Below are positions 18,736-34,932 of a stretch of DNA of 64,000 nt, piece by piece. The notes under the pieces were generated by a model that was not told where the DNA came from, did no database searches, and saw nothing but the letters and a program-made list of their open reading frames with translations. Where the stretch lies: positions 1,697-65,696 of IMG/VR virus record IMGVR_UViG_3300035670_000187; one strand, given 5' to 3'. The DNA comes from a virus. Lineage: Duplodnaviria; Caudoviricetes. Both the position numbers and the translations under genes were made by a program. How positions within the stretch are numbered: the first letter of the stretch is position 1; the number at the start of each line of letters is the position of its first letter.

Positions 18736-21700
18736 ATGCAATTTAACGTTGACCCATATTACGACGATTTTGAGCAAAATGCATTAGATAATAACTATAT
18801 GCGTCTTTTGTTCAAGCCTGGTTTTGCAGTTCAGGCTCGCGAATTAACGCAAATTCAGTCTATCCTTCAAAACCAAATTAAACAATTCGGCGATCATGTG
18901 TTTCAAGACGGATCACCTGTAATTGGCGGAAATCTTACCTTAGATAACAAAGTTCAATTTTTAAGATTAGAAGAAACTTTTAACAATGAAGACGTCGACG
19001 TTGAACTCTTTAATGGAAAAGTAGTTCGTAGTCTAGATGGTACTGTACAAGCTAAAGTGTTAACGACCTTTTTCCCAACAGATGGTGTGCCAACGCTACT
19101 TGTAAAGTACATTACTGGTAATGAATTTACTGATGCATCAAACGTTCGCGTGGCTGGAACTACCACTGAAGCTAAAATGGTTTCAGCTAATTCAACAGGA
19201 GCTGGTTTAGTTTGCTCTATTAATGAAGGCGTGTTTTATGTTGATGGATTTTTCGTAAAAGTCAATGATCAAACAACTGCAGTTAATCCATATGGCGTGA
19301 CTGCAAACGTAAAAATTGGTTTAGAAATTTCTGATGACATTGTTGACAGCGTCGTAGACACAACGCTATTAGATCCTGCACAAGGATCATTTAATTACCA
19401 AGCTCCTGGTGCTGATCGCTATCAATACAATCTAACGCTCACAACACGTCCACTTGATACTGCTGTTGATGAATCGCAGTTTTTTGAATTGATGCGTGTT
19501 GAAAATGGTGTTATCACCAAGCAAGTTAAGTATCCAGTTTATGCAGAACTAGAAAAAACACTCGCTCGAAGAACCTTTGATGAATCTGGTGACTATGTCG
19601 TTCGACCATTTCGTGCAACTATTAATGATGGTGCGAATGCTAACAATTATGTTCTTTCAGTAGAACCTGGTAAAGCCTATGTAAAAGGTTTTGAATTCGA
19701 AACCATAGGAACGCTCAAAGTAACAGCACCAAAACCTAGAAGTGCTGCTGATATTAAATCTTTTGTTGATATCGATGTTGATACATCATATGGTAATTTT
19801 ATCTACGTTACTTCTTTACGCGGTTCTTCTAACGGTTTTATCAATATCGCTGCGTTAGAAAAAGTAGACGTTCACTTAGGCAAAAGTAGTTGTATTTTTA
19901 CTAACGGTGCAGGTAATGGAACGGCAAATGCATTTGTTTATGCTAATACTAAAATTGGTACAGCGCGTATTAAAAACATTGTAAGACAAAATCCGGATTT
20001 ATTTAATACTACCACAGACTCAAATGGCGTCTATAAACTTTATTTGACTGATGTTAATATTCAACCTAAAGTATTGAAGGTTAAAGAAATCAGCCCTAAT
20101 GCTCAAACTATTGTTTTAACAACTGACTTTTGCGCAAACGTTAACAATTTTATTAATGTTTCTGTGACTATTTTGCCAGTTCGTTTAGATCCAGTTGCCA
20201 ACGTCAATGTAGCAAATGTCTTCATTAATTCATATCGTCTAAATGCTAACTCAGCTGTAGCAAACGTGTTTAATTCCAACGTTGCTCCTGGTAGCGTTAT
20301 TCGTGTAGCTGATATGGTGCGTGAAGTTGTTTCAGTAAATACTTCAGGTGACTTCTTAACAGTAAATAGAGCATGGGATAAAACGATTGTCGCAACTAGC
20401 TCTACAACAAATCCTCTTTCTGTTTTTGTCCAGTCCGCTTATACACAAAACGTTTCAGGTCAAAGTCGCGTAATTACTGCTGCAGCAAATAATGGTGGAG
20501 CTAATTTACATTTTTATACTGATCGACCATTTGACAATGAAGGCGTCCCAGACGCAAACACTGTAGTGCAATTTAACTTTGGTGTTAAAGATGCTAAAAG
20601 TTTTTGCTCTGGTCCAGTAGTTTCTAACGGATTAGCATTGTTTGCCAATGCTACTATGAATGTTGCGTTGCAATCTACATTAATTACCAACGAATCATTT
20701 ATAGATGATCCAAAACGAAATCAGTTAATTTTTAAATTGCCTGCAACATTTGTAAGAAGAACTTCGCTTAACAACACTGACTATGTTCATAGTAAGTATA
20801 TTGCAGATCGTTCTAATACAGGAAATCCTGGCGAATTTACAGTAGCGCAAGGTTCTGGTTTAGAAAACTTTGAAACTATTGCGTGGGCAGATTCAACCAG
20901 TGCAATTCAAGATAATTTAATTTTTGTTGTGCGCGATGGCAGAGGGAATGTAAGTTATCCTAATGGATCAGTAGTTCAATTAACTGCAGCTAATGTAACG
21001 CTATCAGGCTCTCCAGTAAATACAATTACAATAGATACTGGTGTACCTGATATTATTAAAGCAGATATTATTTTAAACGTTAAAGAAAATGATGCTGAGG
21101 ATAAAATTCGTAGAAAAGTGTTCATGCAAAACACTCAACCTACAGTAGATCCATTCACATATCCTACATCTAATTCTTCAACATCAAATACTGAAGTTTC
21201 ATTACCAAACTTGGATCATGTTGCTTCTATTGATGTTGCAAATGGATTTATTTGGTTAACAAATCCAACATATAATGCTGTAAATCCAGGCGATTCTATT
21301 TCGCTATTTGTACCTGATGTTGTGCGTGTTCGTAGAGTCATAGCTGGTAACACAACTAATGTTCCAGATGCAGACAATGCAACAGATATTACAAATCGTT
21401 TCTTTATAGATTATGGGCAACGAGATGATAAGTACGAACACACTAAACTTGTACTAAGATCTGGATTTGATAGTCCGAATGCTAAACTTTTAGTTCATGT
21501 TGATTTTTATCAACACATTTATGCTACTGGCGCTAATGTTTCATTCTTTTCAGCCGAATCATATGACCAAACACTCTATGATAATGGCTCTATTCCAATC
21601 TACACTTCTCAAGATGGTACAATTTATTATCTTCGCGATTGTTTAGATTTTAGACCAACGCAGCCTATTGGCGATACAGCCGCATCATTTACAGTTCCAA

Positions 21701-23007
21701 ATATTCCAGCTCCAGATGATACAACAGAATTGTCTGTTGACTATTATTTACCTAGAATTGACAAACTTGTATTAAGTAAAGATAAAGAGTTTAGAGTCAT
21801 CACTGGTAAATCAGCACCAAGACCTCTTCCACCAGAAGATCTTGATGACGCCATGACTCTCTACCAAATTAACGTTCCTGCATTTGGCGCAGATGTTCGT
21901 GAATTTAATTTAAAATATGTAGACAATCGCCGCCTCACTATGCGTGATCTAGCTAACCTTCAAAAGAGAGTTGAAAGTCTTGAATTTTACACTTCGTTTA
22001 ATAATGTTGAATTGTTAGCATTAAGCGACAAAACAGCCTATGAAGATGGAACTGAAAAAGAAAAATTTGGTATAGTGGGTGAAAATTTCAGTAACTTTAA
22101 TATTGCTGATTATAAGAGCCCAGAGTTTGGTGTTGCACTAGATAGTGGATTCATGATGCCATCTGCATTAACTGAAATTTATGGGTTTAGAAATATTGCT
22201 ACATCCTTCACCAAGAAAAATAAAAAGACTATCACGTTAAACTATACAGAAACGCCAGCAATTACACAAGGTGTGGCTTCTAATAATGCTGTTTCAGTGC
22301 AGCCATTCCTATTTGGCTCGTTTAATGGCACACTAGAACTTGCACCTGAAACTGACTATTGGGTCAATGAGTCTTTGAAACCTGAAATTATTTCTGTTCC
22401 TGAAAGAATTATTGAACATCATCATGTGATTCGTGAAATCATCATTGAGCCCACACCACCTCCAACAATTATTAACAAGTATTACACAACGAACGTGGTG
22501 AATCAAATTATTACAGCACCAGGAAATGATCCTGTTGATCCACCACCTAGTGACAGACCACCACCTGATCCGCCACCATCGCCTCCTGTTGTTCCACCAA
22601 CACCTGAACCACCAGTTCAGCCACCTCCGCCTCCGCCTCCGCCTCCGCCAGAGGAAGACCCTATCTACACGATACTTCCAGTTATAGAGCCTATTAAATT
22701 TGAATTTGATCCATGTTTCTCATTCGGCGTCAATTTCACATTTGGTGTCACTGGTGCTGGAAGTAGACCTAATTGCGCTCACGGAGGAATGTGGGGTAAA
22801 GGTGGCTTAACTGATTTTTGGTTCCCACCAATTGATATAGATAAGAATATTGAACCAACTCCACCAGTGCTAGAAGCACCAAATCCAACCAAAACTACAC
22901 CAATTAATATCGTTGGTAGAGGCGGTGGCGGTGGCGATGTGCGCGGTGGTATTGGAGTTGGAAGAGCAGGTGATGATGCTTTAAATCGCGATTTTGGTTT
23001 TAAATAA
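18736..23007 (+). CDS. VrlC-like large structural protein, N-terminal part, with Pro-rich C-terminus
   Basis: FNVDPYYDDF, LFKPGFAVQARELTQIQSILQNQI, APGADR, LARRTFDESGDY, PGKAYVKGFE, DFRP, YYLPRIDKL. Confidence 0.85.
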   Translation: MQFNVDPYYDDFEQNALDNNYMRLLFKPGFAVQARELTQIQSILQNQIKQFGDHVFQDGSPVIGGNLTLDNKVQFLRLEETFNNEDVDVELFNGKVVRSLDGTVQAKVLTTFFPTDGVPTLLVKYITGNEFTDASNVRVAGTTTEAKMVSANSTGAGLVCSINEGVFYVDGFFVKVNDQTTAVNPYGVTANVKIGLEISDDIVDSVVDTTLLDPAQGSFNYQAPGADRYQYNLTLTTRPLDTAVDESQFFELMRVENGVITKQVKYPVYAELEKTLARRTFDESGDYVVRPFRATINDGANANNYVLSVEPGKAYVKGFEFETIGTLKVTAPKPRSAADIKSFVDIDVDTSYGNFIYVTSLRGSSNGFINIAALEKVDVHLGKSSCIFTNGAGNGTANAFVYANTKIGTARIKNIVRQNPDLFNTTTDSNGVYKLYLTDVNIQPKVLKVKEISPNAQTIVLTTDFCANVNNFINVSVTILPVRLDPVANVNVANVFINSYRLNANSAVANVFNSNVAPGSVIRVADMVREVVSVNTSGDFLTVNRAWDKTIVATSSTTNPLSVFVQSAYTQNVSGQSRVITAAANNGGANLHFYTDRPFDNEGVPDANTVVQFNFGVKDAKSFCSGPVVSNGLALFANATMNVALQSTLITNESFIDDPKRNQLIFKLPATFVRRTSLNNTDYVHSKYIADRSNTGNPGEFTVAQGSGLENFETIAWADSTSAIQDNLIFVVRDGRGNVSYPNGSVVQLTAANVTLSGSPVNTITIDTGVPDIIKADIILNVKENDAEDKIRRKVFMQNTQPTVDPFTYPTSNSSTSNTEVSLPNLDHVASIDVANGFIWLTNPTYNAVNPGDSISLFVPDVVRVRRVIAGNTTNVPDADNATDITNRFFIDYGQRDDKYEHTKLVLRSGFDSPNAKLLVHVDFYQHIYATGANVSFFSAESYDQTLYDNGSIPIYTSQDGTIYYLRDCLDFRPTQPIGDTAASFTVPNIPAPDDTTELSVDYYLPRIDKLVLSKDKEFRVITGKSAPRPLPPEDLDDAMTLYQINVPAFGADVREFNLKYVDNRRLTMRDLANLQKRVESLEFYTSFNNVELLALSDKTAYEDGTEKEKFGIVGENFSNFNIADYKSPEFGVALDSGFMMPSALTEIYGFRNIATSFTKKNKKTITLNYTETPAITQGVASNNAVSVQPFLFGSFNGTLELAPETDYWVNESLKPEIISVPERIIEHHHVIREIIIEPTPPPTIINKYYTTNVVNQIITAPGNDPVDPPPSDRPPPDPPPSPPVVPPTPEPPVQPPPPPPPPPPEEDPIYTILPVIEPIKFEFDPCFSFGVNFTFGVTGAGSRPNCAHGGMWGKGGLTDFWFPPIDIDKNIEPTPPVLEAPNPTKTTPINIVGRGGGGGDVRGGIGVGRAGDDALNRDFGFK
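22450..22660 (+). repeat. Proline-rich low-complexity coding tract including a (CCTCCG)n run
   Basis: PTPPP...DPPPSDRPPPDPPPSPPVVPPTPEPPVQ followed by a poly-Pro run at 22621-22650. Confidence 0.85.
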
Positions 23008-23037
23008 AGTATTAGCAACAATTAGGTAACATGAGTT

Positions 23038-26000
23038 ATGCCAAATAATCTAACAACAAATTTCGGAAAAGTTGTCGTAGACACAAGTCTAGTTCCATAC
23101 ATCAGAAGTCGTGATGTGGAATTTACTGCACGAAATTTAAAGCCATATAAATTGTCAAAGATTTTCTTTGATGATATTGCTGTAAATGCATTTTGTCAGG
23201 TCGGCAACAAAATTGTTTTAGATTCTAAAAAAATTGTAACCGTTTCAAGAAATAACTCAACAACTATTGCTACAAGCGATATAGCTTATCAAGGCACTTC
23301 AAATACTGTTAACACTTTTAATGCTGTTGTTGATGCATGGTATACAAGTAATTCTACTATTGTTCTTCGTTCATTATCTGGCAATTTCGATGAAGAAGCT
23401 CAATTGTTTATTGAAGCTGCAACATCTCACGATGGACTAACTATTGGCGATACTTTTGCTAACTGTAATGTCAGCACAGTAATTAATTTCAACACTTCCG
23501 ACACATTTCCGCCAGGAGAAGGTATTCGTTGCCCACAAGGCGGCAACGTTTATGCCAAAGTATTGGCGACATCAGGCGAAAACGTTCTTTACTTGAATCA
23601 AAATTTTGTTACATTAAACGTAACAGCTAATGGTAGTGATGTTCTTTCTTCATTAACGCAAGATTATAAGTTTGGTGACGTTGTATATCAAACTGCTGAT
23701 GGTAGCCAAAATTACTATGCAGCTACATTTAGAGGCACTGTTGAATACTATAACGTTGAAAGCCCAGGAACCTTAGCAATTAAACCAATCGCTGGATCAT
23801 TGCGCAGTAATGCAACCAGTACTAGCGCAAACGCTAATGTTCGTATTTGGAATTCCTCTAACTCTGCTTCTAAACCACTTTGTGCGCAATCGTTTAATGC
23901 TAATAAATTTGAAAGTGGTAATGTTGTAAGCGTTTTAAATTCTGCCAATACCATCAAAATTACTTCTTATATTCACAGATCAGGTGTCTTAGCTAATACG
24001 CTAAATCCTAACACTTCTTCTGTAATTTTATCAGTAAACGATGCATCTAATCATCCTACACTAAATGCTAACTTGATTTATTTTACATCAGGAACAGGTG
24101 TAGGCGAAGTAAAACGTATTATTAGTATCAGCGGTAGAGAGGCAACTCTTAACTCCGCTTTAACCTCTGGCTATGATTCCGCTACACATTATTCTGTTGG
24201 CAATTTTATAGTTGACGAATATGGTACTGAAACGGGTATTTTTCATATTCCATCATTCCCAGGATATAAGTTTAAAACAGGAAATCGTTTATTAACGATT
24301 ACTGACACAAATACTTACAATGATCCAGACTATGGGATGAGAGCTGCAGCTACTTATGCTGCTTCTGGTTTGTTGAAGACAACACAAAATATTCAAACAA
24401 CGCCAACTCTTCCACCATTTCCAGAAGTTGATGCCGACAATCTTGTTGCTCCAATTAATCCTGCTGATAGATCATACAGCTCAAGTGGTTCTAAGAGTCC
24501 AATTACAGGTTCAACAGCCTCCACTACACCGAGAATTCCATTGGGCGATGGTTTGTCTCAAACATTCTTCTCGCCTAAACCACTCAGCAACAAACAAGAT
24601 TATGGTATTTTCGTGACATCGGTGGATCTCTTCTTTAGAAGTAAACCTAGTGTTGCACTAGGCAGTATGCAGTTACCTGTAACCGTAAAAATCGCTGAAG
24701 TTTCTAACGGTTATCCAACTAAGAAATATTTGGCAGCAAAGACAATTCAAGCCAAAGATGTAAAAATCTCAAGTATTCCTAGCGTGACAGACGCATCAAC
24801 TCTTACTAAGTTTACATTTGACGATCCTGTTTATTTGGAACCTAATAGAGAATATGCGCTTATTATTGGATCAGATTCTCCAGATTATGAATTATTCATT
24901 GCTGAATTAGGACAAGAAGTGTTGGGTGCTGCGCAGCCAAGAAGAATTTCAGAACAACCTTACGCTGGTTCACTATTCCGTTCGCAAAATAGTTCTACTT
25001 GGACAGCGTATCAAAATCAAGATTTGATGTTTAGAATCAATAAAGCTGTTTTTGCGACTTCAGGTACAGCAACGTTTAACTTGGAAGAAGCACCAGTAAC
25101 AACGACTGCAGTTGATAAATTTGTTCTATCATCCGCTGATCTTCGTTTCCCTGTTGGCGCAGTAGATTATCGTGTTCGTGGCGTTTATACCGCAGACTCT
25201 ACCAATGATTCTGGAGTTTTGTCTGTTCCATATTCAGTTATAGAATATGGAGTATTGCAAGATAAATCTAGTGCTGTAAGCACCAACAGAAGAAAAATGA
25301 TCGGGGGCAATTCTAACAGTGTTGTTACAACTGTCGAAATGTCTTCTTCAGATCCAGATGTTTCTCCTGTAGTTAATTTAGAACGTTTAGCTCTTACTAC
25401 GTTCCTTTATAACATTAATAATGCTGGATTATCGAATAATGTAATAGCGATAACCAACAAAGGTTCAGGTTATTCTAACACTGGTCCAGCAAATACTTCT
25501 AAAGTTAATATGAGTGGAAACTCTTTTAATGTGGTAATTGGAAGTTCTAACACAACATTGAATAACTTCGCGCAAATTTATCGTGAAACTTATTACCCAT
25601 ACCCTACCTACAATGTCGGTTTCTATAACTTAGAAATAACAAATTCAGGAAACGACAGTGGCTCGGGAGCAACAGGTTTTGCTGTCGCTAATACTGACGG
25701 ATTGAACACTGTCAATCATATTGTAATGATGACCCCTGGAAGTGGTTATCTAGAAACACCTACAGCAACAGTTGCTGGTGGCGCTAATACTGTATCGAAT
25801 ACTCAAGCCTTTGTTACATGTTCTGGTGAAACAAGTAAATCTGGTGGTAATATCCGTGCTAAGTATATCACACGCGAAATTGTTTTGGAAGATGGATTTG
25901 AATCAGGTGACATTCGCGTGTATATGGATGCCATTCGTCCAGCGCCTGTCGATATTCAAGTTTACTATAAAGTTTTATCTGGCGATGATGTTGATCGTAT

Positions 26001-26250
26001 TTCAGATAAATCATGGCGTCGTATGGAAAAATTAAAAGATATCTATTCGCGTAATGCTAGAACTTTAATTGGATTAGAATTTAGACCATCCATAACTGAG
26101 AATAGAATTTCATACACTGAAAATGGCGTTTCATATCCTATCGGCGGTAAATTTAAACAATTCCAAATTAAAGTTTGCTTACTCAGCCCAGACCCAGCTT
26201 TGGTTCCTAAAATTCGTAATCTTCGTATTATAGCAACGCCTGAGGGATAA
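23038..26250 (+). CDS. VrlC-like large structural protein, C-terminal part
   Basis: PYIRSRDVEF.ARNLKP, F.TG.R, LSQTF, GIFVTSVDLFF, FTFDDPVYL, QPYAGSLFRSQNSSTWT..QNQDLMF, KYITR, FKQFQIK, LRIIA. Confidence 0.85.
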   Translation: MPNNLTTNFGKVVVDTSLVPYIRSRDVEFTARNLKPYKLSKIFFDDIAVNAFCQVGNKIVLDSKKIVTVSRNNSTTIATSDIAYQGTSNTVNTFNAVVDAWYTSNSTIVLRSLSGNFDEEAQLFIEAATSHDGLTIGDTFANCNVSTVINFNTSDTFPPGEGIRCPQGGNVYAKVLATSGENVLYLNQNFVTLNVTANGSDVLSSLTQDYKFGDVVYQTADGSQNYYAATFRGTVEYYNVESPGTLAIKPIAGSLRSNATSTSANANVRIWNSSNSASKPLCAQSFNANKFESGNVVSVLNSANTIKITSYIHRSGVLANTLNPNTSSVILSVNDASNHPTLNANLIYFTSGTGVGEVKRIISISGREATLNSALTSGYDSATHYSVGNFIVDEYGTETGIFHIPSFPGYKFKTGNRLLTITDTNTYNDPDYGMRAAATYAASGLLKTTQNIQTTPTLPPFPEVDADNLVAPINPADRSYSSSGSKSPITGSTASTTPRIPLGDGLSQTFFSPKPLSNKQDYGIFVTSVDLFFRSKPSVALGSMQLPVTVKIAEVSNGYPTKKYLAAKTIQAKDVKISSIPSVTDASTLTKFTFDDPVYLEPNREYALIIGSDSPDYELFIAELGQEVLGAAQPRRISEQPYAGSLFRSQNSSTWTAYQNQDLMFRINKAVFATSGTATFNLEEAPVTTTAVDKFVLSSADLRFPVGAVDYRVRGVYTADSTNDSGVLSVPYSVIEYGVLQDKSSAVSTNRRKMIGGNSNSVVTTVEMSSSDPDVSPVVNLERLALTTFLYNINNAGLSNNVIAITNKGSGYSNTGPANTSKVNMSGNSFNVVIGSSNTTLNNFAQIYRETYYPYPTYNVGFYNLEITNSGNDSGSGATGFAVANTDGLNTVNHIVMMTPGSGYLETPTATVAGGANTVSNTQAFVTCSGETSKSGGNIRAKYITREIVLEDGFESGDIRVYMDAIRPAPVDIQVYYKVLSGDDVDRISDKSWRRMEKLKDIYSRNARTLIGLEFRPSITENRISYTENGVSYPIGGKFKQFQIKVCLLSPDPALVPKIRNLRIIATPEG

Positions 26251-26481: not shown

Positions 26482-28914
26482 ATGGCAAATACAACAAACG
26501 TTGGAATTATAGATACAGCTAATACGTTCAATCATTGGCGTATTCGCGATAACCTCATTGCAAATGATGTAAATGAGATTGTTCGTGGCGATTTTACCAA
26601 ACCTAGCGGAAACATTATCATAGAAGGTAGTGGCACTGGTCAAGGTCGTTTAGTAATCAATAATTCAACTGGCGGTATTACATTTCAGGTTAAAGATGAT
26701 GCGCGTATTGACAATTTGTTGTCAGTAGATACTATTGAATCAGATGACGACGGTCATGTTTATTTGGCTGCTGGCGATATTACCATGGGCAATCGTGCAG
26801 CTGGCGGTCTATTTCAAGCAAATATTAACACCAATTTTAATTCAGCTTATGTCGCATTTTCGAACGATACGGTTGGCTTAATTAATGTTAACACACGCAC
26901 TTTAATTGTTAATACTGCTAACGCACTATTTCAAAATAACAATCCTGGTGCAACATTAAATGTAAACGTTTACTCTACAACATTTTATGGAACTAATGTC
27001 GCAGTTGATAACACATCATCAGGAACACTTATTGTTACCAACAGACTAACGCACGTCAATTCTGGAAACATCTACTTTGGTAACACAGATGTAGAAGCAA
27101 CTTTTAACGTTCTCACACAAAATACGAATTTTTTGGGTCCTAATGTAAACTTTGATAATACTTCTGTTGGCACAATTAACGTTGACAATAGAATTGTTCA
27201 AATCAATACACCAAATGTAATCTTAACTAATACAAGTGCTACTGCTACGTTTAATGTATTCCCAAATACATTTTTCCACGGTGGCTCAGTAAATGTTGCA
27301 AATACAACTGAACAAGCTATAGTTCACATCACACCAAACACTACATTCTTCACTAATGTAACAGTTCAAGGCACAGAAGATGTAATCAGTGATTTTAGAG
27401 TTAACACCAATAAATTTACAGTAACAGCATCCAGTGGTGATACTGTTGTAGCTGGAGATTTAACTGTACAGGGTGGAGATATTATTTCTTCTACTGCTGA
27501 AATGAACTTGGTTAACTCGACAGCTACAACTGTTAATTTCGCTAACGCTGCAACAACACTCAGAATGGGCGCAGCAGCAGGAACAATATTTGTTGGCGGC
27601 GATTTACAGGTTGAAGGTAATGATATTAAATCTTCAACTGGAGCAGCTGCGCTATCACTATCCGCAACAGACGTAACAGTTGCAGGCGACTTGACTGTTT
27701 CTGGTGGAGATATTATCTCTACAGCTACAGCAAATTTGGTGAATACTAGCGTCACAGCAGTAAATCTTGGTGGTGCTGCTGCAACAGTTCGTATCGGTTC
27801 AACTACTGGAAATACTGTTGCAAGAAATGATCTAATCATTGATGGCAACACAAGTATTGGCACAGATCTATCAGTCAGCGGTAAATTGGGTCTTGGAACT
27901 GCAACACCTAACTCTACGCTTACTGTACTGGGTAATGTTTGGATCACCAATGGTGGTAATGTTACTGGAACTCTAAACGTTACTTCAGCAAATATTATTA
28001 GCGCAGCAATAGAATCTTTAACACTTGTAAATCCTATCCAAGGACAAACTGAACTAGGAACCAATTCATTCCGACTTCGCGTTGGTCAAACAACGAGAGA
28101 AACAGGTCAAATTGGTGTATTTTTAGGAAGTGCGGCTAATGGTAATGCATGGATAGCCTTTGATACTGCACCTACAGGTGGCGCTAATGTATGGCGTGTA
28201 ACTGCTAATAGCACAGAAGGAACATACTATACATTGATTACGATGCAAAACGTCGTAGCGACAACTTCTAACACCAGTACCATTTATGTTGCTGCAGCTA
28301 ATACTGTAAATACATTGAATACTTTAATGGGAACAACGTTTACAACGTTGAACACCTCAGCTGCAACTCAAAATACATGGATCAATAATCTTAATACGGC
28401 AACAAGCACTATTAATAGTCACTTAGGAACTATTAACACAACTTTTAGCACTGTTAACACGACCTTCGGTACTGTTAACACAACTTTTGGTACTGTCAAT
28501 ACAACTTTTGGCACTTTAAATACTAACATTACCAATATTACAACTGGTGCTACACCAACAACTCTCAGAGGATACAATGAGGGTGTAAATACAGCAACAG
28601 TTACAGGTGGTACGTTCGTTTGTAATTTAACAGGTAACAATGTGTTTGATTTAACGTTACAATCATCAACCACAACTATTACCTTTACAAATGCTGCAAC
28701 AAGTGGGTTTTCTAAACCAGCCACGTTGATTTTACGACAACCATCATCTTCAGCTAATACAGTAACTTTTGCTAATACAATTAACTGGAGCGATAATGAA
28801 GTTCCAGTATTGTCTAGCGGAATAGCTAAAAAACTTGATATCATCACTGTTATGTCTCTCAATGGCGCAATATTCTTTGGCTCACACGTAATGGCTAACG
28901 TATCATATCCATAA
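26482..28914 (+). CDS. Tail fibre protein
   Basis: N-terminal ANTFNHWR..DN, GDLTV.GGDI repeats, heptad stalk, C-terminal NVFDLTL...LILRQ...W..PVLS..DII domain. Confidence 0.8.
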   Translation: MANTTNVGIIDTANTFNHWRIRDNLIANDVNEIVRGDFTKPSGNIIIEGSGTGQGRLVINNSTGGITFQVKDDARIDNLLSVDTIESDDDGHVYLAAGDITMGNRAAGGLFQANINTNFNSAYVAFSNDTVGLINVNTRTLIVNTANALFQNNNPGATLNVNVYSTTFYGTNVAVDNTSSGTLIVTNRLTHVNSGNIYFGNTDVEATFNVLTQNTNFLGPNVNFDNTSVGTINVDNRIVQINTPNVILTNTSATATFNVFPNTFFHGGSVNVANTTEQAIVHITPNTTFFTNVTVQGTEDVISDFRVNTNKFTVTASSGDTVVAGDLTVQGGDIISSTAEMNLVNSTATTVNFANAATTLRMGAAAGTIFVGGDLQVEGNDIKSSTGAAALSLSATDVTVAGDLTVSGGDIISTATANLVNTSVTAVNLGGAAATVRIGSTTGNTVARNDLIIDGNTSIGTDLSVSGKLGLGTATPNSTLTVLGNVWITNGGNVTGTLNVTSANIISAAIESLTLVNPIQGQTELGTNSFRLRVGQTTRETGQIGVFLGSAANGNAWIAFDTAPTGGANVWRVTANSTEGTYYTLITMQNVVATTSNTSTIYVAAANTVNTLNTLMGTTFTTLNTSAATQNTWINNLNTATSTINSHLGTINTTFSTVNTTFGTVNTTFGTVNTTFGTLNTNITNITTGATPTTLRGYNEGVNTATVTGGTFVCNLTGNNVFDLTLQSSTTTITFTNAATSGFSKPATLILRQPSSSANTVTFANTINWSDNEVPVLSSGIAKKLDIITVMSLNGAIFFGSHVMANVSYP
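28423..28524 (+). repeat. 21-bp heptad tandem repeat (TFGTVNT)
   Basis: LGTINT TFSTVNT TFGTVNT TFGTVNT TFGTLNT. Confidence 0.85.
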
Positions 28915-28929
28915 TTTAAGAGGTGAAAA

Positions 28930-29337
28930 ATGGAAGGTTCTAATGTAGTTTCAATTCACAAAAATCGCGTTGACACATTTGAAGGTGTGTTAAAAGCGTA
29001 TCGAGAAAAAATTACCAAAATTAATGCTGTAGACAATATTCAGGTGTTAGATTTAAAAGCATCAAATATTTTTCATATCACACTAAGAAAAAATATTATA
29101 AATATTGCTTTTGATAATTTACCTGAGGCTGATCACAGCTATTCTTGCACAATTATTTTAAAACAAGATAACATGGGCAACAGAAAAGTGGTATTTCCAG
29201 AAAACGTATTTTGGTCTTTCGGAGAAGTAGCAATTCTTTCGAATAAACCAGATTACGCAGATGTAATTACATTAATGACATTTGATGGCGGCGAGACGTA
29301 TTATGCATCTCATGCGTTAGCCAATTTAGGACGTTAA
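28930..29337 (+). CDS. Stand-alone paralog of the upstream fibre's C-terminal domain
   Basis: NIFHITL, TIILKQD, VFW...ILS..DVITL, ASHALAN align by eye with NVFDLTL, TLILRQ, INW...VLS..DIITV, GSHVMAN; SD GAGGTG. Confidence 0.75.
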   Translation: MEGSNVVSIHKNRVDTFEGVLKAYREKITKINAVDNIQVLDLKASNIFHITLRKNIINIAFDNLPEADHSYSCTIILKQDNMGNRKVVFPENVFWSFGEVAILSNKPDYADVITLMTFDGGETYYASHALANLGR

Positions 29338-29352
29338 GGAGGTTATTTAAAA

Positions 29353-29700
29353 ATGGCTAATCTAGTTAAAATTAAAAAAGTTCACATCTATACTGCTATG
29401 ACCGAAGATGCTGCAGAATGTTGGAGTGCAGTAAAACTACTCAAAGATAACAATGTTCCAGTAAACCATTTAAACTGGGGCGACGATGCAACACTTTCAG
29501 GGTTGTATGAGTCTCTAGGAACATGGAATTATTATGACGGTGAAAAGTTGTACCACAAATCATTTTCAAAACTTCCTATTATTCATTGGGAATGCGTTTA
29601 TGAGGATGATCTGGTTGTCACAAACGCTGCAGAAGGACTTGAAGAGTTACAAAAATCTGAATTAATGGCTAATCTAGACAAAATTGTTAAACCTGTTTAA
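29353..29700 (+). CDS. Possible glutaredoxin/thioredoxin-fold protein lacking CxxC
   Basis: VHIYT....AECWSAVKLLKDNNVP..HLN and KLPII resemble the Grx beta1-alpha1-beta2 and cis-Pro motifs; strong SD AAGGAGG. Confidence 0.5.
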   Translation: MANLVKIKKVHIYTAMTEDAAECWSAVKLLKDNNVPVNHLNWGDDATLSGLYESLGTWNYYDGEKLYHKSFSKLPIIHWECVYEDDLVVTNAAEGLEELQKSELMANLDKIVKPV

Positions 29701-29722: not shown

Positions 29723-32593
29723 ATGCCTCTAGCAGCCACAACTCTTCGAAAAACTCGCGTAAAAGCTGGTTCTGTTACTTTTAACAGTAGCGGTGTATGG
29801 GTCATTCCATTCGGCGTTCGAAAAATCAATATTACTGGAACAGGTGGTAATGGTAACGCAGGTAATCCTGGAAATCCAGGAGTAAATGGAACTGGCGGAA
29901 CAGGAGGTGTTGGTGGTAATGGCGGAACTGCTGGTAGTGCTGGCAATCCTGGAGCGCAAGGTAATACAGGTCAACCTGGGAATCCTGGAATAAATGGATC
30001 AGGTGGTGCTGGTGGCGCAGGTGGTAATGCTGGCAACCCAGGAGCTCAAGGTAATTCGGGTCAACCAGGAACCAATGGTGCTGGCGGTGCTGGTGGCGCA
30101 GGTGGTAATGCTGGCAACCCAGGAGCACAAGGAAATGCTGGAAACCCTGGTATAAATGGATCAGGTGGCGCTGGAGGTGCTGGTGGTAATGCTGGCAACC
30201 CAGGAGCACAAGGAAATGCTGGTAATCCTGGGGTAAATGGTAACGGAGGAGCTGGAGGTGCTGGTGGAGCAAGAGGTAATGCTGGTAACCCAGGAGCTCA
30301 AGGACAACCAGGAAATGCTGGAAATCCAGGCATAAATGGCGCAAGAGGCAATGGTGGTTTTGGTGCTAATGGTGGTAATGCAGGAGGCGGAGGTCAAGGT
30401 GGTTTAAACACAGGTTATAACACCAATCAAGGTCAACCTGTTCCTGCTGCAGCAAACGGTAACACAGGCGTTAATGGTAATCCTTTTGGAAATATAGGGT
30501 TCCCTAGTTTTGGTACTGGTGGAACATTTGGTGCAGGTAATACTAACAATGCTGGTGGTTTTTGTGCACCTAGCGGTAACGCTGGCGGCGGTGGTAATGC
30601 TGGATCAGGTGGATCAGGAAACCCTGGCAACTCTGGAAATGCTGGAGCAGCAGGTAATGTTGGCAGCGCAGGTAGTCCTGGCGCTAACGGGAGTGGAGCC
30701 AACCCAGGACAACCAGGAGCAGGTGGTCAACCTGGCAATGCAGGTGCCAACGGAAATCCAGGAAATACAGGTGCTTCAGGTAGTGGCGCTAACTCGGGTG
30801 CTGCTGGTCAACCAGGATCTGCTGGCGCCAACGGAAATCCAGGAAACACAGGCGCCAGTGGAAGTGGAGCAAATCCTGGTGCTGCAGGTCAACCAGGATC
30901 TGCTGGTGCTAATGGCGCACCAGGAAACACAGGCGCCAGTGGAAGTGGAGCAAATCCAGGTGCTGCTGGTCAACCAGGATCTGCTGGGGCGAATGGCAAT
31001 GCTGGAGCTGCTGGTAATACAGGAGCTGCAGGAAATGCTGGAACAGGGGCAACTAATGGTAATGCAGGACAACCAGGAAACCCTGGCAATGCAGGAGCAA
31101 CAGGCAATGCTGGTTCTGCAGGAAACGCAGGTAATGCTACAACATTAGTAGCTGGATCATCTGTTACATTTTCATCTATATCTTTGCCAGGTGGCGCAGG
31201 AGGTAATGCTGGAGCTGCTGGCGCAGGAGGTAATGCTGGTCAACCAGGAAATGCTGGAGCTGCAGGAAATCCTGGAATAAACGGATCAGGCGGTAATGGT
31301 GGTGCTGGAGGCGCTGGTGGTGCTCGAGGTAATGCTGGCAATCCAGGTACTGCTGGAAATGCTGGTCAACCAGGAACCAATGGCGTCGGAGGTGCTGGGG
31401 GTGCTGGTGGTAATGCTGGTAACCCAGGAGCTCAAGGTAATTCGGGTCAACCAGGAACCAATGGCGTTGGTGGTGCTGGGGGAGCAAGAGGTAATGCTGG
31501 TAACCCAGGAGCTCAAGGCAACTCTGGTCAACCAGGAACCAATGGATCAGGTGGTGCTGGTGGTGCTCGCGGCAATGCTGGAAATCCTGGAAATCAAGGA
31601 CAACCAGGAGGCGGCGGCAATCCAGGCGCTAATGGTAACGGAGGAGCTGGTGGTGCAGCGGGAAATGCTGGGGGCGCAGGAAATCCAGGGCAACCAGGAA
31701 ATGCTGGCACTCCAGGTGGCGGCGGCGGTGGCGGCGGTGGCGGCGGCGGTGGCTCTTCAACTTACTATGCCTTCAATTTCTTTACTTACAATTTTGACTT
31801 TATCTGGTGTCCAGGACAAGCAGGTGGTGCTGGTGGTGCTGGTGGAAATCCAGGCAGCGGTGGTGGCGGATCAGGGGGTGTGGCTACCAGTTCTCAAGAT
31901 GGTACACTAAGAGGACAACCAGGAAATGCTGGACAACCAGGAACAGCTGGTCCTGAAGGTAATCCTGGTGTTGATGGAAGTGGAGCATCATCAGGTGGTG
32001 CAGGTGGAACAGGACAACCAGGAAATGCTGGCGCTAATGGTAATGCCGGAAGCCCAGGAGGAGCAGGAAATTCAGGCTTCGGAGCAAATTCAGGTTCCGC
32101 AGGTCAACCAGGAAGTTCTGGTTCTAATGGTGCTGGAGGCAATCTGGGCGCAAGTGGTAATGGAGCAAATTCAGGTTCCGCAGGTCAACCAGGATCTGCT
32201 GGTTCCAATGGTGCTGGAGGCAATTTAGGTGCTAGTGGCTCCGGAGCAAATTCAGGTTCCGCAGGTCAACCAGGATCTGCTGGTTCCAATGGTGCTGGAG
32301 GCAATCTGGGCGCAAGTGGTAATGGTGCTAACCCAGGACAACCAGGATCCGCAGGTCAACCAGGAAACGCTGGAACTTCAGGATCTGCAGGAAATCCTGG
32401 AGCAGCAGGAAATCCAGGTGCAAATGGCAGCGGAGCAACACCAGGAACAGCAGGTGGCTCTGGTGGCATAGCAAGTGTAGTTAATACTTCTACTGTAATG
32501 CAAAAAACAGTTTCAAGGGGAGCAACTACAACAATTACAGTTGGTACTGGTTCCTCAACAGGTTCTATTACTATTAATTGGCCAAACCAATAA
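29723..32593 (+). CDS. Giant Gly-X-X repeat protein (polyglycine-II/collagen-like; probable fibre-tip adhesin)
   Basis: N-terminal VTFNSSGVWVIPFGVRKINITGTGG and C-terminal TITVGTG..GSITINW typical of phage glycine-rich domains, interrupted by four Gly-X-X arms. Confidence 0.85.
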   Translation: MPLAATTLRKTRVKAGSVTFNSSGVWVIPFGVRKINITGTGGNGNAGNPGNPGVNGTGGTGGVGGNGGTAGSAGNPGAQGNTGQPGNPGINGSGGAGGAGGNAGNPGAQGNSGQPGTNGAGGAGGAGGNAGNPGAQGNAGNPGINGSGGAGGAGGNAGNPGAQGNAGNPGVNGNGGAGGAGGARGNAGNPGAQGQPGNAGNPGINGARGNGGFGANGGNAGGGGQGGLNTGYNTNQGQPVPAAANGNTGVNGNPFGNIGFPSFGTGGTFGAGNTNNAGGFCAPSGNAGGGGNAGSGGSGNPGNSGNAGAAGNVGSAGSPGANGSGANPGQPGAGGQPGNAGANGNPGNTGASGSGANSGAAGQPGSAGANGNPGNTGASGSGANPGAAGQPGSAGANGAPGNTGASGSGANPGAAGQPGSAGANGNAGAAGNTGAAGNAGTGATNGNAGQPGNPGNAGATGNAGSAGNAGNATTLVAGSSVTFSSISLPGGAGGNAGAAGAGGNAGQPGNAGAAGNPGINGSGGNGGAGGAGGARGNAGNPGTAGNAGQPGTNGVGGAGGAGGNAGNPGAQGNSGQPGTNGVGGAGGARGNAGNPGAQGNSGQPGTNGSGGAGGARGNAGNPGNQGQPGGGGNPGANGNGGAGGAAGNAGGAGNPGQPGNAGTPGGGGGGGGGGGGGSSTYYAFNFFTYNFDFIWCPGQAGGAGGAGGNPGSGGGGSGGVATSSQDGTLRGQPGNAGQPGTAGPEGNPGVDGSGASSGGAGGTGQPGNAGANGNAGSPGGAGNSGFGANSGSAGQPGSSGSNGAGGNLGASGNGANSGSAGQPGSAGSNGAGGNLGASGSGANSGSAGQPGSAGSNGAGGNLGASGNGANPGQPGSAGQPGNAGTSGSAGNPGAAGNPGANGSGATPGTAGGSGGIASVVNTSTVMQKTVSRGATTTITVGTGSSTGSITINWPNQ
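29990..32326 (+). repeat. Four blocks of three 81-bp (27-aa) tandem repeats
   Basis: Blocks at 29990-30232, 30725-30967, 31316-31558 and 32084-32326. Confidence 0.85.
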
Positions 32594-32633: not shown

Positions 32634-32654
32634 TATGGTTTCAATGGAGTGACT

Positions 32655-33383
32655 ATGCTTTTCGAAAATCTAAAATCTGTAATAAAAACTCCGACCATAG
32701 AATTTTTGTGCGAAGAAGATTTGTTTGGGATGATGCCTGAACCTTATCCTGCACGCAAATTCATGCCAGAATGGTTCAAGGAGTTACCGCCTAAATTGAA
32801 TCGAGAAAACAAAATTGAGAACAGCACAATAAAGCGATGTGCTCCTGTTCTAGATGCAATGTCTGTGGGTTGGATCATACCTCTTTGCGGCGATGTTGAA
32901 TTTATTTCAAATAATAATGCCAGTGGAGTCAATTACAAGTGGACTTTCATGAGAACATTGGTTGAAAATCATAATGTTGACCAAATTTCTACACAAAAAG
33001 CTCCGCATCCCCAAACGCCCAAACCACCTATGAAATTTTTGAACTATTGGGCTATCAAAGTTCCTAAAGGATATTCAGTATTATTCGTCCCACCTCTAAA
33101 CAGACAAGACCCAAGATTTACATGCATGTCTGGATTTGTAGATTGCGATGGATATTTTGAATACATCAACTTCCCGTTTTTCTTCAATATCCCAAGTTAT
33201 ACTGGCATTGTGGAAGCAGGGGTTCCATTGGTTCAGGCTATCCCAATCAAAAGAGACGGGATCATTCAAAGGTCTAATGTTCGAAAGTTTAACAAACAAG
33301 ATCATGAGGATTTAGACACTACTCGAAAGAGAAGAAAGTCGCATGAAAGCATTTATCGTGATTTTATATGGAATAGAAAATAA
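32655..33383 (+). CDS. Conserved-type phage hypothetical protein (TIKRCxPxLDA type) often found beside 2OG-Fe(II) oxygenases
   Basis: PEPYPA..MPEWFK, TIKRCAPVLDAM..GWIIPL, KFLNYW.IK.PKGYSVLF.PPLN, SGFVDCD, G.PLVQ.IPIKR; ATG 5 nt after GGAG is preferred to the GTG at 32649. Confidence 0.7.
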   Translation: MLFENLKSVIKTPTIEFLCEEDLFGMMPEPYPARKFMPEWFKELPPKLNRENKIENSTIKRCAPVLDAMSVGWIIPLCGDVEFISNNNASGVNYKWTFMRTLVENHNVDQISTQKAPHPQTPKPPMKFLNYWAIKVPKGYSVLFVPPLNRQDPRFTCMSGFVDCDGYFEYINFPFFFNIPSYTGIVEAGVPLVQAIPIKRDGIIQRSNVRKFNKQDHEDLDTTRKRRKSHESIYRDFIWNRK

Positions 33384-33982
33384 TGAGTGTATATAATTTT
33401 GCACCATCGCCAGATCTTGCAACAAAAGAGGAATCATTTGCTACCTGGGAAAATGGCTTCTCAGAAGAACAAATTTCTGAGATAATTCGTATAGGCGACA
33501 GCTTGAATCCAACACTAGCTACAGTTGGAGGAATGAAATCTGGGCAAGATATTAGCGATGTTCGAGAGTCCTTGACCTCATGGATTAAACTTAACGATCA
33601 AACTGCATGGTTGTACGATTCTATGGCGTATATAGCCAGACAAATTAATGGTCAGTTTTTTGAGTTTGATTTGGCAGGTTTCTGCGAAGATTTTCAGTAT
33701 ACAGTATATCATTCAAATAATAGTCATTATAATTGGCATCTAGATCGCGGTCCTAATACTGTAGCGCCTCGAAAACTTTCTATGGTACTACAATTATCTG
33801 ATCCCAGCGAGTATGATGGTGGGGATTTAGAATTGTTTATAGCCCCAAATCCGACGGTTGCTACTCGTAAAAAGGGATTAATATACATTTTTCCTTCCTG
33901 GGTTCTTCATCGAGTGACGCCAGTGACTCGTGGAATAAGAAAATCTCTTGTAATTTGGATAACTGGTCCTAAATTTAAATAA
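33383..33982 (+). CDS. 2OG-Fe(II) oxygenase, prolyl-4-hydroxylase-like
   Basis: HxD in YNWHLD, RKLSMVLQLS..EYDGGDL, FPSWVLHRVTPVTRGIRKSLVIW (distal His and 2OG-binding Arg). Confidence 0.92.
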   Translation: MSVYNFAPSPDLATKEESFATWENGFSEEQISEIIRIGDSLNPTLATVGGMKSGQDISDVRESLTSWIKLNDQTAWLYDSMAYIARQINGQFFEFDLAGFCEDFQYTVYHSNNSHYNWHLDRGPNTVAPRKLSMVLQLSDPSEYDGGDLELFIAPNPTVATRKKGLIYIFPSWVLHRVTPVTRGIRKSLVIWITGPKFK

Positions 33983-33989
33983 ATATCAA

Positions 33990-34175
33990 ATGGACACAAA
34001 TAACACAAACGAAACTAGAACCTACCCAGTAGACCCTAATGCATTACGCCGATTTGAAATATGTCAGGCGTGTAAATATTACATTGCAGAAAAAACTCAA
34101 TGCGATCTGTGCGGATGTAATATCAAAGCAACCTTAAATGAAGAGAAGGGCAACTGCCCAATAGGTAAGTGGTGA
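33990..34175 (+). CDS. Small Cys-rich putative metal-binding protein
   Basis: RRFEICQAC...CDLCGC...CPIGKW. Confidence 0.75.
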   Translation: MDTNNTNETRTYPVDPNALRRFEICQACKYYIAEKTQCDLCGCNIKATLNEEKGNCPIGKW

Positions 34176-34176
34176 A

Positions 34177-34932
34177 ATGATTTATTGCAAAGAAAGAAAA
34201 CTAGGAATATTTATGAACCCAAAAACGGGTTCGCACACTATTAGTAAAACATTTAAAAACATTTCCGTCACAAAAAACACTAGAGATCATTCCAATTATG
34301 TAATGGCTTTAGATTACGCAGAATTACCAGATTTTAACACATTTAAATTTTATTGTTTTTATCGTGATCCAATAGATCGTTTTAACAGTGGCTTTAAATT
34401 TTATAAACGCTACGCATATGCGCATTGTTTAAGAACGTTTTTCTCAAGCGAGCTTATGACAGAATCTATGAAGCAAATTTCAAAGGCTAAGTACGATAAA
34501 TTGCTTCATATGAATAAGAAGTATGACGAAGAATATCTTTGGCTATCACAAGATTTAAAGGACAAAATTGAATCTATTACTGTTTCTCAACTTTTAAATC
34601 ATTTTACATATGAAAAAATAAACGGTAATCCTACACCAGAAGAAGTCTATAAAGGCGCTTTTCAAGAGACGCCTAGTCCATTTATCAATCAGCGTTTTTG
34701 GTTAGATCATGATATCGATTTAACACTATTAAACTTTGCTTCTTTCGAAGAAGAACTAAAAACATTAGTAAGTCTATTCGGAGTTACTCTTGAAACCGTA
34801 AGTCAAGAAAATCGTAATTTGGTTGTTGAGAATGAATATGTTTTAACGCAAGAAGATATAAGTTTAATAAAACAATTTTACAAACCTGATTATGATTTTT
34901 TTGCATCTAAAGGTATCACTTTCGACATTTAA
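34177..34932 (+). CDS. Sulfotransferase-family protein (Sulfotransfer_2-like)
   Basis: 5'-PSB-like PKTGSHT, 3'-PB-like RDPIDRFNS, C-terminal FYKPDYDFF. Confidence 0.8.
   Translation: MIYCKERKLGIFMNPKTGSHTISKTFKNISVTKNTRDHSNYVMALDYAELPDFNTFKFYCFYRDPIDRFNSGFKFYKRYAYAHCLRTFFSSELMTESMKQISKAKYDKLLHMNKKYDEEYLWLSQDLKDKIESITVSQLLNHFTYEKINGNPTPEEVYKGAFQETPSPFINQRFWLDHDIDLTLLNFASFEEELKTLVSLFGVTLETVSQENRNLVVENEYVLTQEDISLIKQFYKPDYDFFASKGITFDI

Follow-up and report, generated by a model that had tools for sequence, protein, structure and literature searches.

A glycine-rich protein of an uncultured T4-like myovirus with four length-matched Gly-X-X arms: a candidate single-chain polyglycine-II rod

Why should one protein carry four long glycine-rich arms of nearly the same length, built from two different repeats? 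The question is raised by a gene on the plus strand of a stretch of 64,000 nucleotides (nt) from the virus record IMGVR_UViG_3300035670_000187 (Duplodnaviria; Caudoviricetes; positions 1,697 to 65,696 of the record). The whole of this stretch is called the window below. It makes up most of a 65.7-kb IMG/VR record which is 38% complete according to CheckV, and the gene is present in that record as a single copy. T4-type genes for a tail tube, a baseplate hub with lysozyme and wedge subunits lie upstream, and very large tail-fibre-like genes lie downstream. The source is therefore an uncultured T4-like myovirus, and the glycine-rich gene belongs to its baseplate/fibre block. With a GC content of 0.547 the gene differs clearly from its flanks (about 0.37). 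Its product of 956 amino acids (aa) contains 350 Gly (36.6%), 153 Ala, 132 Asn, 74 Ser and 69 Pro, with 18 charged residues. The answer that we favour, and consider reasonably probable, is that the protein forms a single-chain, double-hairpin rod of the polyglycine-II (PGII) type, about 57 nm long and with hypervariable distal tips, which is probably a host-recognition fibre. The narrower claim, that the molecule keeps its own four arms in a common register, is in our judgement very likely.

The protein consists of a non-repetitive base, split into N-terminal, middle and C-terminal pieces, and four arms between these pieces (Table 1). The arms are runs with glycine at every third residue, of 187, 181, 187 and 184 aa. 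The original prediction, made from the sequence of the window, had described the same split base with arms of 189, 186, 188 and 185 aa, in agreement with these values to within 1-5 residues. Tandem Repeats Finder reported an array of 81-nt (27-aa) units in each arm: 3.6 copies at 29976-30267, 3.4 copies at 30713-30987, 3.6 copies at 31307-31600 and 3.0 copies at 32081-32325, with 81-87% matches within the arrays. This accords with the three full 27-aa copies per arm claimed before, and rows of 27 aa with their consensus units bear out the further claim that arms 1 and 3 use one unit and arms 2 and 4 another. Arms 1 and 3 are identical at 136 of 169 positions (80%) and arms 2 and 4 at 111 of 166 (67%), whereas pairs of arms of different type reach only 51-59%, which is the Gly-X-X background. 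At the DNA level the identity of the arms is only 71-74%. From the two sequence types it follows that the window protein is the tandem duplication of a module with two arms.

The two arm types differ in how strictly the glycine register is kept. Arms 2 and 4 have six in-register changes from Gly to Ala each, in a motif G-x-G-A-x-x-G that occurs once per 27-aa repeat; among the 63 triplets each of arms 1 and 3 there is one in-register non-Gly residue in arm 1 and none in arm 3. Taken together the arms (739 residues) contain 41.5% Gly, 7.8% Pro and only 7 charged residues (0.9%). The X and Y positions are used asymmetrically: 57 of the 58 arm prolines occupy Y and one occupies X (60 of all 69 prolines are followed by Gly), and Asn favours X over Y (87 vs 24). 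Compared with close homologues, the tips are hypervariable (7-42% identity, as against 62-80% in the base). In tip 2 identity is 7-25% in the loop but 68-82% in the short conserved Gly-X-X segment.

Two side observations on the gene may be added. Many ORFs (open reading frames) of 75-232 aa overlap it between 29719 and 32471, in other frames and on the minus strand; these are by-products of the GGN-rich repeats with no sign of being genes. Logan contigs from the four best public sequencing runs break within the repeats, and also where the poly-Gly codons lie. None of the pieces from these runs spans an arm, which neither confirms nor refutes the repeat counts of the window, and the joints listed (with sides of 20-26 letters) are probably cross-matches between repeats.

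Relatives were reached by two routes, namely pattern scans seeded on the non-repetitive parts and a scan seeded on the conserved downstream gene as an anchor. From the latter the best 80 of 189 confirmed places were kept. A Gly-rich ORF was present at 74 of these 80 anchor loci, and all of the 31 distinct ORFs directly precede the anchor, on its own strand. Partial ORFs (L084, L089, L098, L099, L102 and L110), near-duplicates (L074, L091, L096 and L097) and proteins with irregular arms (L081, L100, L101 and L103) were left out of the table of arm lengths. Three complete proteins from earlier pattern scans (L027, L047 and L067) were added, so that the table held 21 proteins with four delimited arms.

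Searches with the repetitive sequence itself led elsewhere. A word search with the whole protein gave 5 matches, all of them generic collagen-like proteins of PF01391, and an exhaustive search gave 7505 matches at E <= 0.001, swamped by proteins of the same kind. Neither the N-terminal nor the C-terminal base piece had a significant match in 155 of these proteins (the top 150 of the exhaustive search and the 5 from the word search; best E 0.16), and a word search with residues 1-44 only found no match. With tblastn or megablast, 50,697 records of isolate phages yielded no match to the whole protein, the 10-kb region, the N-terminal base piece or the miniature homologue described below, although some matches may be masked by the low-complexity filter. 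Genome contigs, when scanned, produced only a 12-residue match, in one metagenome-assembled genome.

Arm length varies widely between the 21 homologues and very little within them. Single arms measure 67-370 aa and the mean arm length of a protein 69-354 aa, yet the difference between the longest and the shortest arm of the same protein has a median of 15 aa. The original prediction had named the co-variation of arm length among homologues as its test, with independent variation as the refuting outcome; all four arms turned out to co-vary, over a more than five-fold range. Pairwise correlations of arm length are r 0.945-0.995 for the 21 rows and 0.981-0.998 for 16 non-redundant rows. When the columns were shuffled 10,000 times, no shuffle reached the observed 15 aa (shuffled median 144 aa, minimum 90 aa). 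The spans of hairpin 1 (arms 1 and 2) and hairpin 2 (arms 3 and 4) are correlated as well, with r 0.979.

The same conclusion can be read from alignments that require no arm boundaries. Between the window protein and a 1170-aa homologue (73% identical; present in ten contigs, and with 2 residues different in one more) there are four indels of 54 aa, one per arm. L079 and L083 have exactly 27 aa fewer than the window protein in each arm. L093 and L094 share 668 of 675 aligned residues and differ by exactly four indels of 21 aa, again one per arm. Matched changes at four loci are thus seen in steps of 54 aa, of 27 aa (in two relatives) and of 21 aa, and the last of these is a case of the matched duplications that had been predicted. 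The pair L093/L094 also reveals how such steps may come about. In DNA the two genes have 30 mismatches in 2025 nt (98.5% identical), and their flanking genes on the same contigs reach only 85.5-89.6%. L094 has four extra 63-nt units, each of which resembles the unit adjacent to it, with identities of 1.00, 0.70, 0.98 and 0.95; among themselves the four are unrelated (0.11-0.49). This pattern points to a separate local tandem duplication (or deletion) in each arm, all four having become fixed jointly over a very short evolutionary distance.

In each protein the dominant period is equal in both arm types despite their different sequences: L093/L094 have 21 aa and L082 has 33 aa, and the period is 27 aa in the group of the window and in three others. 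Two further groups carry a knob of 8 residues that departs from Gly-X-X in every repeat of the returning arms, GAAPNSWP in repeats of 36 aa and AAPCTWPGKC in repeats of 30 aa. The Cys-flanked part of the latter (CTWPGKC) makes a disulfide loop possible. Knobs are found among others in L069:5001-8495 (the same as L105), in L088:77-4885 and in L112. The periods of the four arms in these groups are 33/36/33/36 and 27/30/27/30, the outgoing arms remaining clean at 27 or 33 aa. In L088 the arm types measure 340 and 370 aa, which at 33 and 36 aa per repeat corresponds to 10.3 repeats in both. Because arms with knobs are longer in residues and about equal in repeats, the quantity that is matched between arms is repeat number.

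The division of labour between the strand types is general. In all of 17 proteins compared the motif G.GA..G was more frequent in arms 2/4 (1-10 per arm) than in arms 1/3 (0-2), and patches of GG.GG predominated in arms 1/3. In the window protein, counted in residues from the base, GG.GG occurs at 57, 84, 111 and 138 in arm 1 and in-register Ala at 60, 87, 114 and 144 in arm 2. Throughout the window subfamily the two features stand at equal height above the base to within 3-6 residues, and in the 1170-aa homologue the match runs on along both hairpins. It is suggestive that the extra methyl group of one strand would in this way face the extra glycine of its partner, with one free phase per hairpin. 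Across subfamilies the offset varied from +3 to +12 and depended on where the arm end was placed; this wider comparison was dropped and the window subfamily only was used. In L027:235-3567 (1111 aa) the types of tip occur in opposite order, a poly-Gly and aromatic tip in hairpin 1 and a GNIGYP-type tip in hairpin 2, and the arms are still matched at 77/76/76/76 triplets. The hairpins therefore look modular and may behave as exchangeable units.

These observations can be accommodated by a simple architecture. The N-terminal, middle and C-terminal pieces, each with predicted beta strands, would assemble into one small base of jelly-roll or TNF-like fold. From it the chain would run out along arm 1, turn at tip 1, come back along arm 2, pass through the base, run out along arm 3, turn at tip 2 and come back along arm 4. 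If a chain departs from a small base and returns to it twice, the two arms of each hairpin must be of equal length (arm 1 with arm 2, arm 3 with arm 4). Equal hairpins, a common period and repeat number, and joint change of the arms argue in addition that all four arms pack side by side in register. They would lie antiparallel, as extended left-handed strands of polyproline-II (PPII) or PGII type. Packing of this kind is found in the glycine-rich domains of Pam3 gp24, S16 gp38 and ALK, where the strands have about ten residues and not 187. The outgoing arms with GGxGG and the returning arms with G-x-G-A-x-x-G would then be complementary strand types with the same repeat period, so that a repeat could be gained or lost only when all four arms follow. 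An intramolecular collagen helix requires parallel chains; antiparallel neighbouring arms therefore fit a PPII/PGII bundle and not such a helix. PPII/PGII bundles are described as tending to antiparallel packing, with a rise of 0.31 nm per residue for PGII (bioRxiv 10.1101/2023.11.25.568672). At 3.1 Å per residue the rod of the window protein would be about 57 nm long, and those of the family 21-110 nm; the 620-aa L047 and 1170-aa L002 forms would give about 34 and 74 nm. Both hypervariable tips would come together at its far end, where they would most likely bind the host surface, and the length of the rod would set its reach. Variable distal loops are reported for known glycine-rich-domain adhesins (PMC9608196), and by analogy with these the hypervariability of the tips and the place of the gene among fibre genes suggest that the tips bind the receptor.

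Support for a common base comes from relatives with very short arms. A scan with the N-terminal motif led to L071, a protein of 275 aa with the same order of parts and arms of only 15-25 residues. A word search with L071 found 82 relatives, which are 162-479 aa long and lack Pfam domains. An alignment of these was supplied to AlphaFold2, and the resulting model of L071 had a predicted local distance difference test (pLDDT) score of 75.8, with 127 residues that scored at least 90. These residues comprise eight base strands, contributed by the N-terminal, middle and C-terminal pieces, and the stubs of all four arms. The base strands lie above 95; the stubs are neither helix nor strand according to DSSP, and the tips are poorly predicted. 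The best match among solved structures was the Pam3 fibre 7ypx_A with Z 7.2, below the bar of Z 8 used for structure searches (root mean square deviation 2.4 Å over 82 residues, 26% identity), and it spans the TNF-like and the glycine-rich domain. A wide structure search with the same model returned jelly-rolls at Z 5-6.6, TNF-family ligands among them, and ALK (7nx3_A) at Z 5.8 and 20% identity. These matches of a predicted model are suggestive, a lead rather than proof. The same applies to matches in BFVD, which are weak (E 3e-4 to 0.1, template modelling (TM) score about 0.2) and mostly named 'Glycine-rich domain-containing protein', and to neighbours in the ESM Atlas with scores of 0.80-0.84.

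The short-armed proteins are linked to the window protein by sequence as well as by plan. A profile of the short-armed family matches aa 12-70 of the window protein with 55.4 bits and an independent E-value of 5.4e-13 at Z = 1e6, with a high composition bias. A weaker match of 18.1 bits spans the middle piece and reaches into the arms on either side of it, the last part of arm 2 and the first part of arm 3. Since these matches are colinear, the sequence assigns the window protein to the short-armed family, with arms stretched about ten-fold. Natural forms of intermediate size have arms of about 35-40 aa (L100), 70 aa (L087) and 110 aa (L047).

Several observations weigh against the architecture proposed here, and those on composition and annotation are taken up below with the collagen-like alternative. 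One group concerns arm lengths. In the table, roughly one arm boundary in three was placed by eye, where an arm runs into its tip or is broken by knobs, and the rows are mutually related. For these reasons the boundary-free alignments are stronger evidence than the table. The arms of L081, L100 and L101 are irregular and could not be delimited; in L081 the clean runs of arm 1 and arm 3 measure 151 and 199 aa and the tips could not be placed. L103, the fourth irregular protein, has arms of about 99/99/97/112 aa. Four assemblies have a mismatch in a single arm. L116 has 27 aa more in arm 4 and L120 has 27 aa fewer in arm 3, both being otherwise 100% identical to L113, the balanced form of which is present in 38 loci. 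L107 lacks 90 aa (three 30-aa repeats) in arm 4 compared with L105 and is otherwise 100% identical to it, and the partial protein L048 has 72/72/62 triplets. The simplest reading of these mismatches is the collapse of near-perfect repeats in short-read data, but they may also be real transitional or standing slippage variants in natural populations. The other group concerns structure. Besides the Pam3 match falling short of the bar, Foldseek with the L071 model found nothing in the PDB at E <= 0.001 (its first three rows, which are not significant, are the Bxb1 tail tip and the Pam3 fibre), and, when no alignment was supplied, AlphaFold2 returned an uninformative model of the whole 956-aa protein, with a pLDDT of 25.

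Long Gly-X-X runs in a phage protein naturally call collagen to mind. In a collagen-like trimer each arm would be a parallel homotrimeric triple helix, and the arms would be equal only because each has to return to the common base. The protein has the look of it: PF01391 (Collagen) matches in six stretches with 93.2 bits (E 8.3e-27; the cut-off is 27.2 bits), there are weak matches to PHROG 'collagen like minor tail' and tail-fibre families, arms 1 and 3 are hardly interrupted, and outside the GGxGG patches the arms are one-third Gly with Pro almost only at Y. Phage fibres are usually trimers, Pam3 gp24 included (PMC9608196), and Gly-X-Y ORFs of cyanomyoviruses have been interpreted as collagen-like before, in the account given in PMC1079782. 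Moreover, nearly all arm prolines stand in the X-Pro-Gly context used by prolyl 4-hydroxylases, and a gene for a 2-oxoglutarate (2OG) and Fe(II)-dependent oxygenase is conserved next door. The PF01391 match says little about the fold, however, since the model responds to any Gly-X-Y repeat. Stable bacterial collagens have either a high content of proline and hydroxyproline or many charged pairs, and the imino-acid and charged content of the arms is low by this standard, a verdict that hydroxylation by the adjoining oxygenase could alter. Arms 2 and 4 have a conserved in-register change from Gly to Ala in every repeat, and in some subfamilies a knob of 8 residues. Four triple helices of three chains, side by side, would have no three-fold axis in common with a single-chain base, and independent triple helices would give no reason why the two arm types share a period and a repeat number or why hairpin 1 should equal hairpin 2. 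Finally, the short-armed relatives are predicted to fold as monomers with four confidently placed stubs. For these reasons a collagen-like trimer is unlikely. The rod of antiparallel PGII-type strands would explain the same data with long arms in PGII conformation and monomeric packing.

The second alternative keeps the hairpins and gives up their packing. Two independent two-stranded hairpins might project from the base like antennae, their arms being equal because both tips need the same reach. What the height match of GGxGG and in-register Ala supports is pairing within hairpins (arms 1/2 and arms 3/4); no test made here showed contact between hairpin 1 and hairpin 2; and the opposite order of tip types in L027 makes the hairpins look modular. 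Yet the spans of the hairpins track each other closely, and the four arms changed jointly in four independent comparisons. A two-stranded extended hairpin of 187 residues would also bury very little surface, and the known glycine-rich domains are described as multi-strand lattices (PMC9608196; bioRxiv 10.1101/2023.11.25.568672). We regard unpacked antennae as improbable, and prefer a single four-stranded rod.

That the arms are flexible, largely disordered spacers kept equal by concerted evolution, through gene conversion between the duplicated halves, would agree with the internal duplication and with the lack of a confident full-length fold from AlphaFold2, but it is highly improbable, given that conversion between halves could equalise only arms of the same type (1 with 3, 2 with 4), that the arms are so divergent in DNA, that each insert of L094 is a copy of its own neighbour, and that Pro and Asn are so unevenly divided between X and Y.

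How does the proposed rod compare with known systems? Glycine-rich hairpin lattices of PGII type on a beta-sandwich base are already known from the tips of phage fibres. In Pam3 gp24 the TNF-like strands run on into six glycine-rich out-and-back loops, stacked about 5 Å apart, which end in variable tips and are said to resemble S16 gp38 and ALK (PMC9608196). Pam3, Bxb1 gp33/gp29 and S16 gp38 are listed as PPII bundles in a 2026 paper (PMC13243192). The window protein shares with Pam3 gp24 (7YPX, 7YFW) glycine-rich out-and-back strands and variable distal tips, and, to judge from the model of L071, it may also share a small beta-sandwich base. It differs in having two loops with strands of about 185 residues, made of 27-aa repeats, and nothing before the base; Pam3 gp24, as described, has six loops with strands of about 10 residues and an N-terminal helical domain for trimerisation and docking. 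The pairing of out-and-back Gly-rich strands with variable distal loops that marks such adhesins is present in the window protein as two pairs of matched length and period. S16 gp38 (6F45) is likewise a distal adhesin with PGII helices and hypervariable receptor-binding loops, encoded next to a long fibre gene according to PMC9608196 and PMC13243192, but it has ten short motifs in three layers and a different middle domain. It was recovered by none of the searches made here; the resemblance is one of kind. The link to PGII adhesins drawn in the original prediction thus gained indirect support. The profile of the short-armed family matches the N-terminal base piece and, more weakly, the middle piece, the structural match to Pam3 stops short of the bar, and the same profile found no sequence match among PDB chains beyond linkers.

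Outside phages the nearest parallel is provided by the antifreeze proteins of snow fleas and springtails (2PNE, 7JJV), in which Gly-X-X sequences poor in Pro form an antiparallel, untwisted PPII bundle from one chain (bioRxiv 10.1101/2023.11.25.568672; PMC11869133). Collagen-like Gly-X-Y peptides are reported to be able to form untwisted PPII bundles like that of the snow-flea protein (PMC11869133). Unlike the window protein, the antifreeze proteins are compact two-layer slabs of six to thirteen helices of about 10 residues, have neither a base domain nor long repeats, and serve an unrelated function. With the phage collagen-like tail-fibre proteins of PF01391 the window protein has in common long Gly-X-Y runs in the tail-fibre block of a myovirus; an example is P-SSM2 orf028, known here by its description (PMC1079782). 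It departs from them in its four length-matched arms of two types on a single-chain base, its periodic in-register Ala or knobs, and its very low imino-acid and charged content. Lastly, the N-terminal motif TF.SSGT..VP.GV...I.G.GG followed by glycine-rich segments recalls PF21722 (Gly_rich_2). L072, which adjoins a tail-fibre gene, matches this family at E 6.8e-24, and the weak neighbours of the short-armed family in fold and language-model searches are mostly 'glycine-rich domain-containing proteins'. The window protein itself has no match to PF21722 at E <= 0.01, nor have L047 and L071 at E <= 1, and an hhalign profile comparison with a true member covered only 25 columns, at a probability of 10.5%.

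The genes around the rod gene are conserved on both sides (Table 1). The 810-aa tail-fibre-like protein (26482-29337, plus strand) contains 7-aa repeats (TVNTTFG) near aa 660-690, and its C-terminal 114 aa or so are 33% identical to the product of the next gene (135 aa, phrog_9017); the pair recurs in L002, L047 and L066. The 115-aa protein that follows (29353-29700, plus strand) matches no Pfam or PHROGs family and is found directly upstream in L002, L066, L017 and L047 with 47-75% identity. It is a candidate assembly factor, and the upstream genes in general are possible attachment or assembly partners. Further upstream, with baseplate wedge genes on one side and fibre genes on the other, two giant ORFs of 1423 and 1070 aa adjoin each other (18736-26250, plus strand), both of which match phrog_358 and phrog_877, families with no known function.

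Downstream, the DUF6065-like gene and the oxygenase gene follow in the same order in L002, L027, L047 and L066, and two 2OG-Fe(II) oxygenase genes precede the miniature gene in L071. The assignment of the 244-aa phrog_7084 protein (32649-33383, plus strand) to DUF6065 is based on ESM Atlas features (0.97) and structure (TM score 0.71-0.86). Its closest relatives among isolate phages, with 38-45% identity, are found in haloarchaeal myoviruses (HF1, HF2, HSTV-2, HRTV and others), and Syn9 gp43 is a weak relative. As the haloarchaeal homologues adjoin genes for DNA polymerase and thymidylate synthase and not a Gly-rich gene, the DUF6065-like gene is not tied to the Gly-rich protein everywhere.

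The region 33383-34932 (plus strand) could be a modification cassette. Besides the oxygenase (PF13640) it contains a Cys-rich, DUF6171-like ORF of 61 aa and a sulfotransferase-like gene with a weak match to phrog_3347; the latter gene recurred in L002 only, with 45% identity. Neighbourhoods with oxygenase and sulfotransferase genes are treated by Iyer et al. (2010), where they are predicted to modify co-encoded collagen-like proteins. By analogy, it is a reasonable guess that the neighbouring oxygenase would hydroxylate the Y-position prolines (X-Pro-Gly) of the arms.

Table 1. Parts of the Gly-X-X protein gene and its conserved neighbours (window positions; aa numbering of the 956-aa product)
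Feature	Position	Strand	Description
Whole Gly-rich gene	29723..32593	+	956 aa and stop, from the ORF list; base, two long Gly-X-X hairpins, two tips
N-terminal base piece (aa 1-40)	29723..29842	+	Predicted beta strands; 72-80% identity to close homologues
Arm 1, outgoing (aa 41-227, 63 triplets)	29843..30403	+	27-aa period; GGxGGxGG patches
Tip 1 (aa 228-289)	30404..30589	+	Variable non-Gly-X-X loop with aromatics; 29-42% identity to close homologues vs 64-79% in arms
Arm 2, returning (aa 290-470, 61 triplets)	30590..31132	+	27-aa period; G-x-G-A-x-x-G motif
Middle base piece (aa 471-490)	31133..31192	+	Hydrophobic, beta-strand-like; 65-80% identity; phmmer matches in homologues
Arm 3, outgoing (aa 491-677, 63 triplets)	31193..31753	+	Uninterrupted; terminates in a 13-Gly run
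Tip 2 (aa 678-730)	31754..31912	+	Aromatic loop 678-697, short Gly-X-X segment 698-719, linker 720-730
Arm 4, returning (aa 731-914, 62 triplets)	31913..32464	+	27-aa period; G-x-G-A-x-x-G motif
C-terminal base piece (aa 915-956)	32465..32590	+	Predicted beta strands, ...ITINWPNQ end; phmmer matches in all complete homologues
Conserved upstream genes	26482..29700	+	810-aa tail-fibre-like protein, 135-aa paralogue, 115-aa protein; PHROG tail-fibre families; synteny in L002, L047, L066, L017
Conserved downstream genes	32649..33982	+	DUF6065-like (phrog_7084), then 2OG-Fe(II) oxygenase (PF13640, E 1e-13)

What, then, would the protein represent? We think the chances evenly balanced that it stands for a new class of fibre: a four-stranded PGII nanorod, about 1 nm in thickness, whose length would be 20-110 nm in different phages and would change in quanta of one repeat through four compensating duplications, and which would carry two hypervariable receptor-binding tips at its far end. 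It may possibly be stiffened by prolyl hydroxylation from the co-encoded 2OG-Fe(II) oxygenase. In the literature on phage polyglycine II, glycine-rich and collagen-like fibres we found neither an elongated four-strand rod built from repeats nor a four-fold compensatory evolution of length.

If the architecture is right, this would be by far the longest PGII assembly known, and a natural single-chain alternative to trimeric beta-fibres and to collagen. The PGII bundles known so far are all small domains of antifreeze proteins, phage adhesin tips or ALK, in which a strand has about 10 residues; with strands of 70-370 residues, the rod would be evidence that PGII packing can make long single-chain fibres. 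For protein design it would offer a thin rod of which the length can be tuned by repeat number. The pair L093/L094 is an unusually clean case of compensatory evolution, with four tandem duplications fixed together in genes that are otherwise 1.5% different. For the uncultured myoviruses, many proteins annotated as "collagen-like tail-fibre" would be something else, and the distance over which a phage can reach its receptor would be easy to read from the number of repeats.

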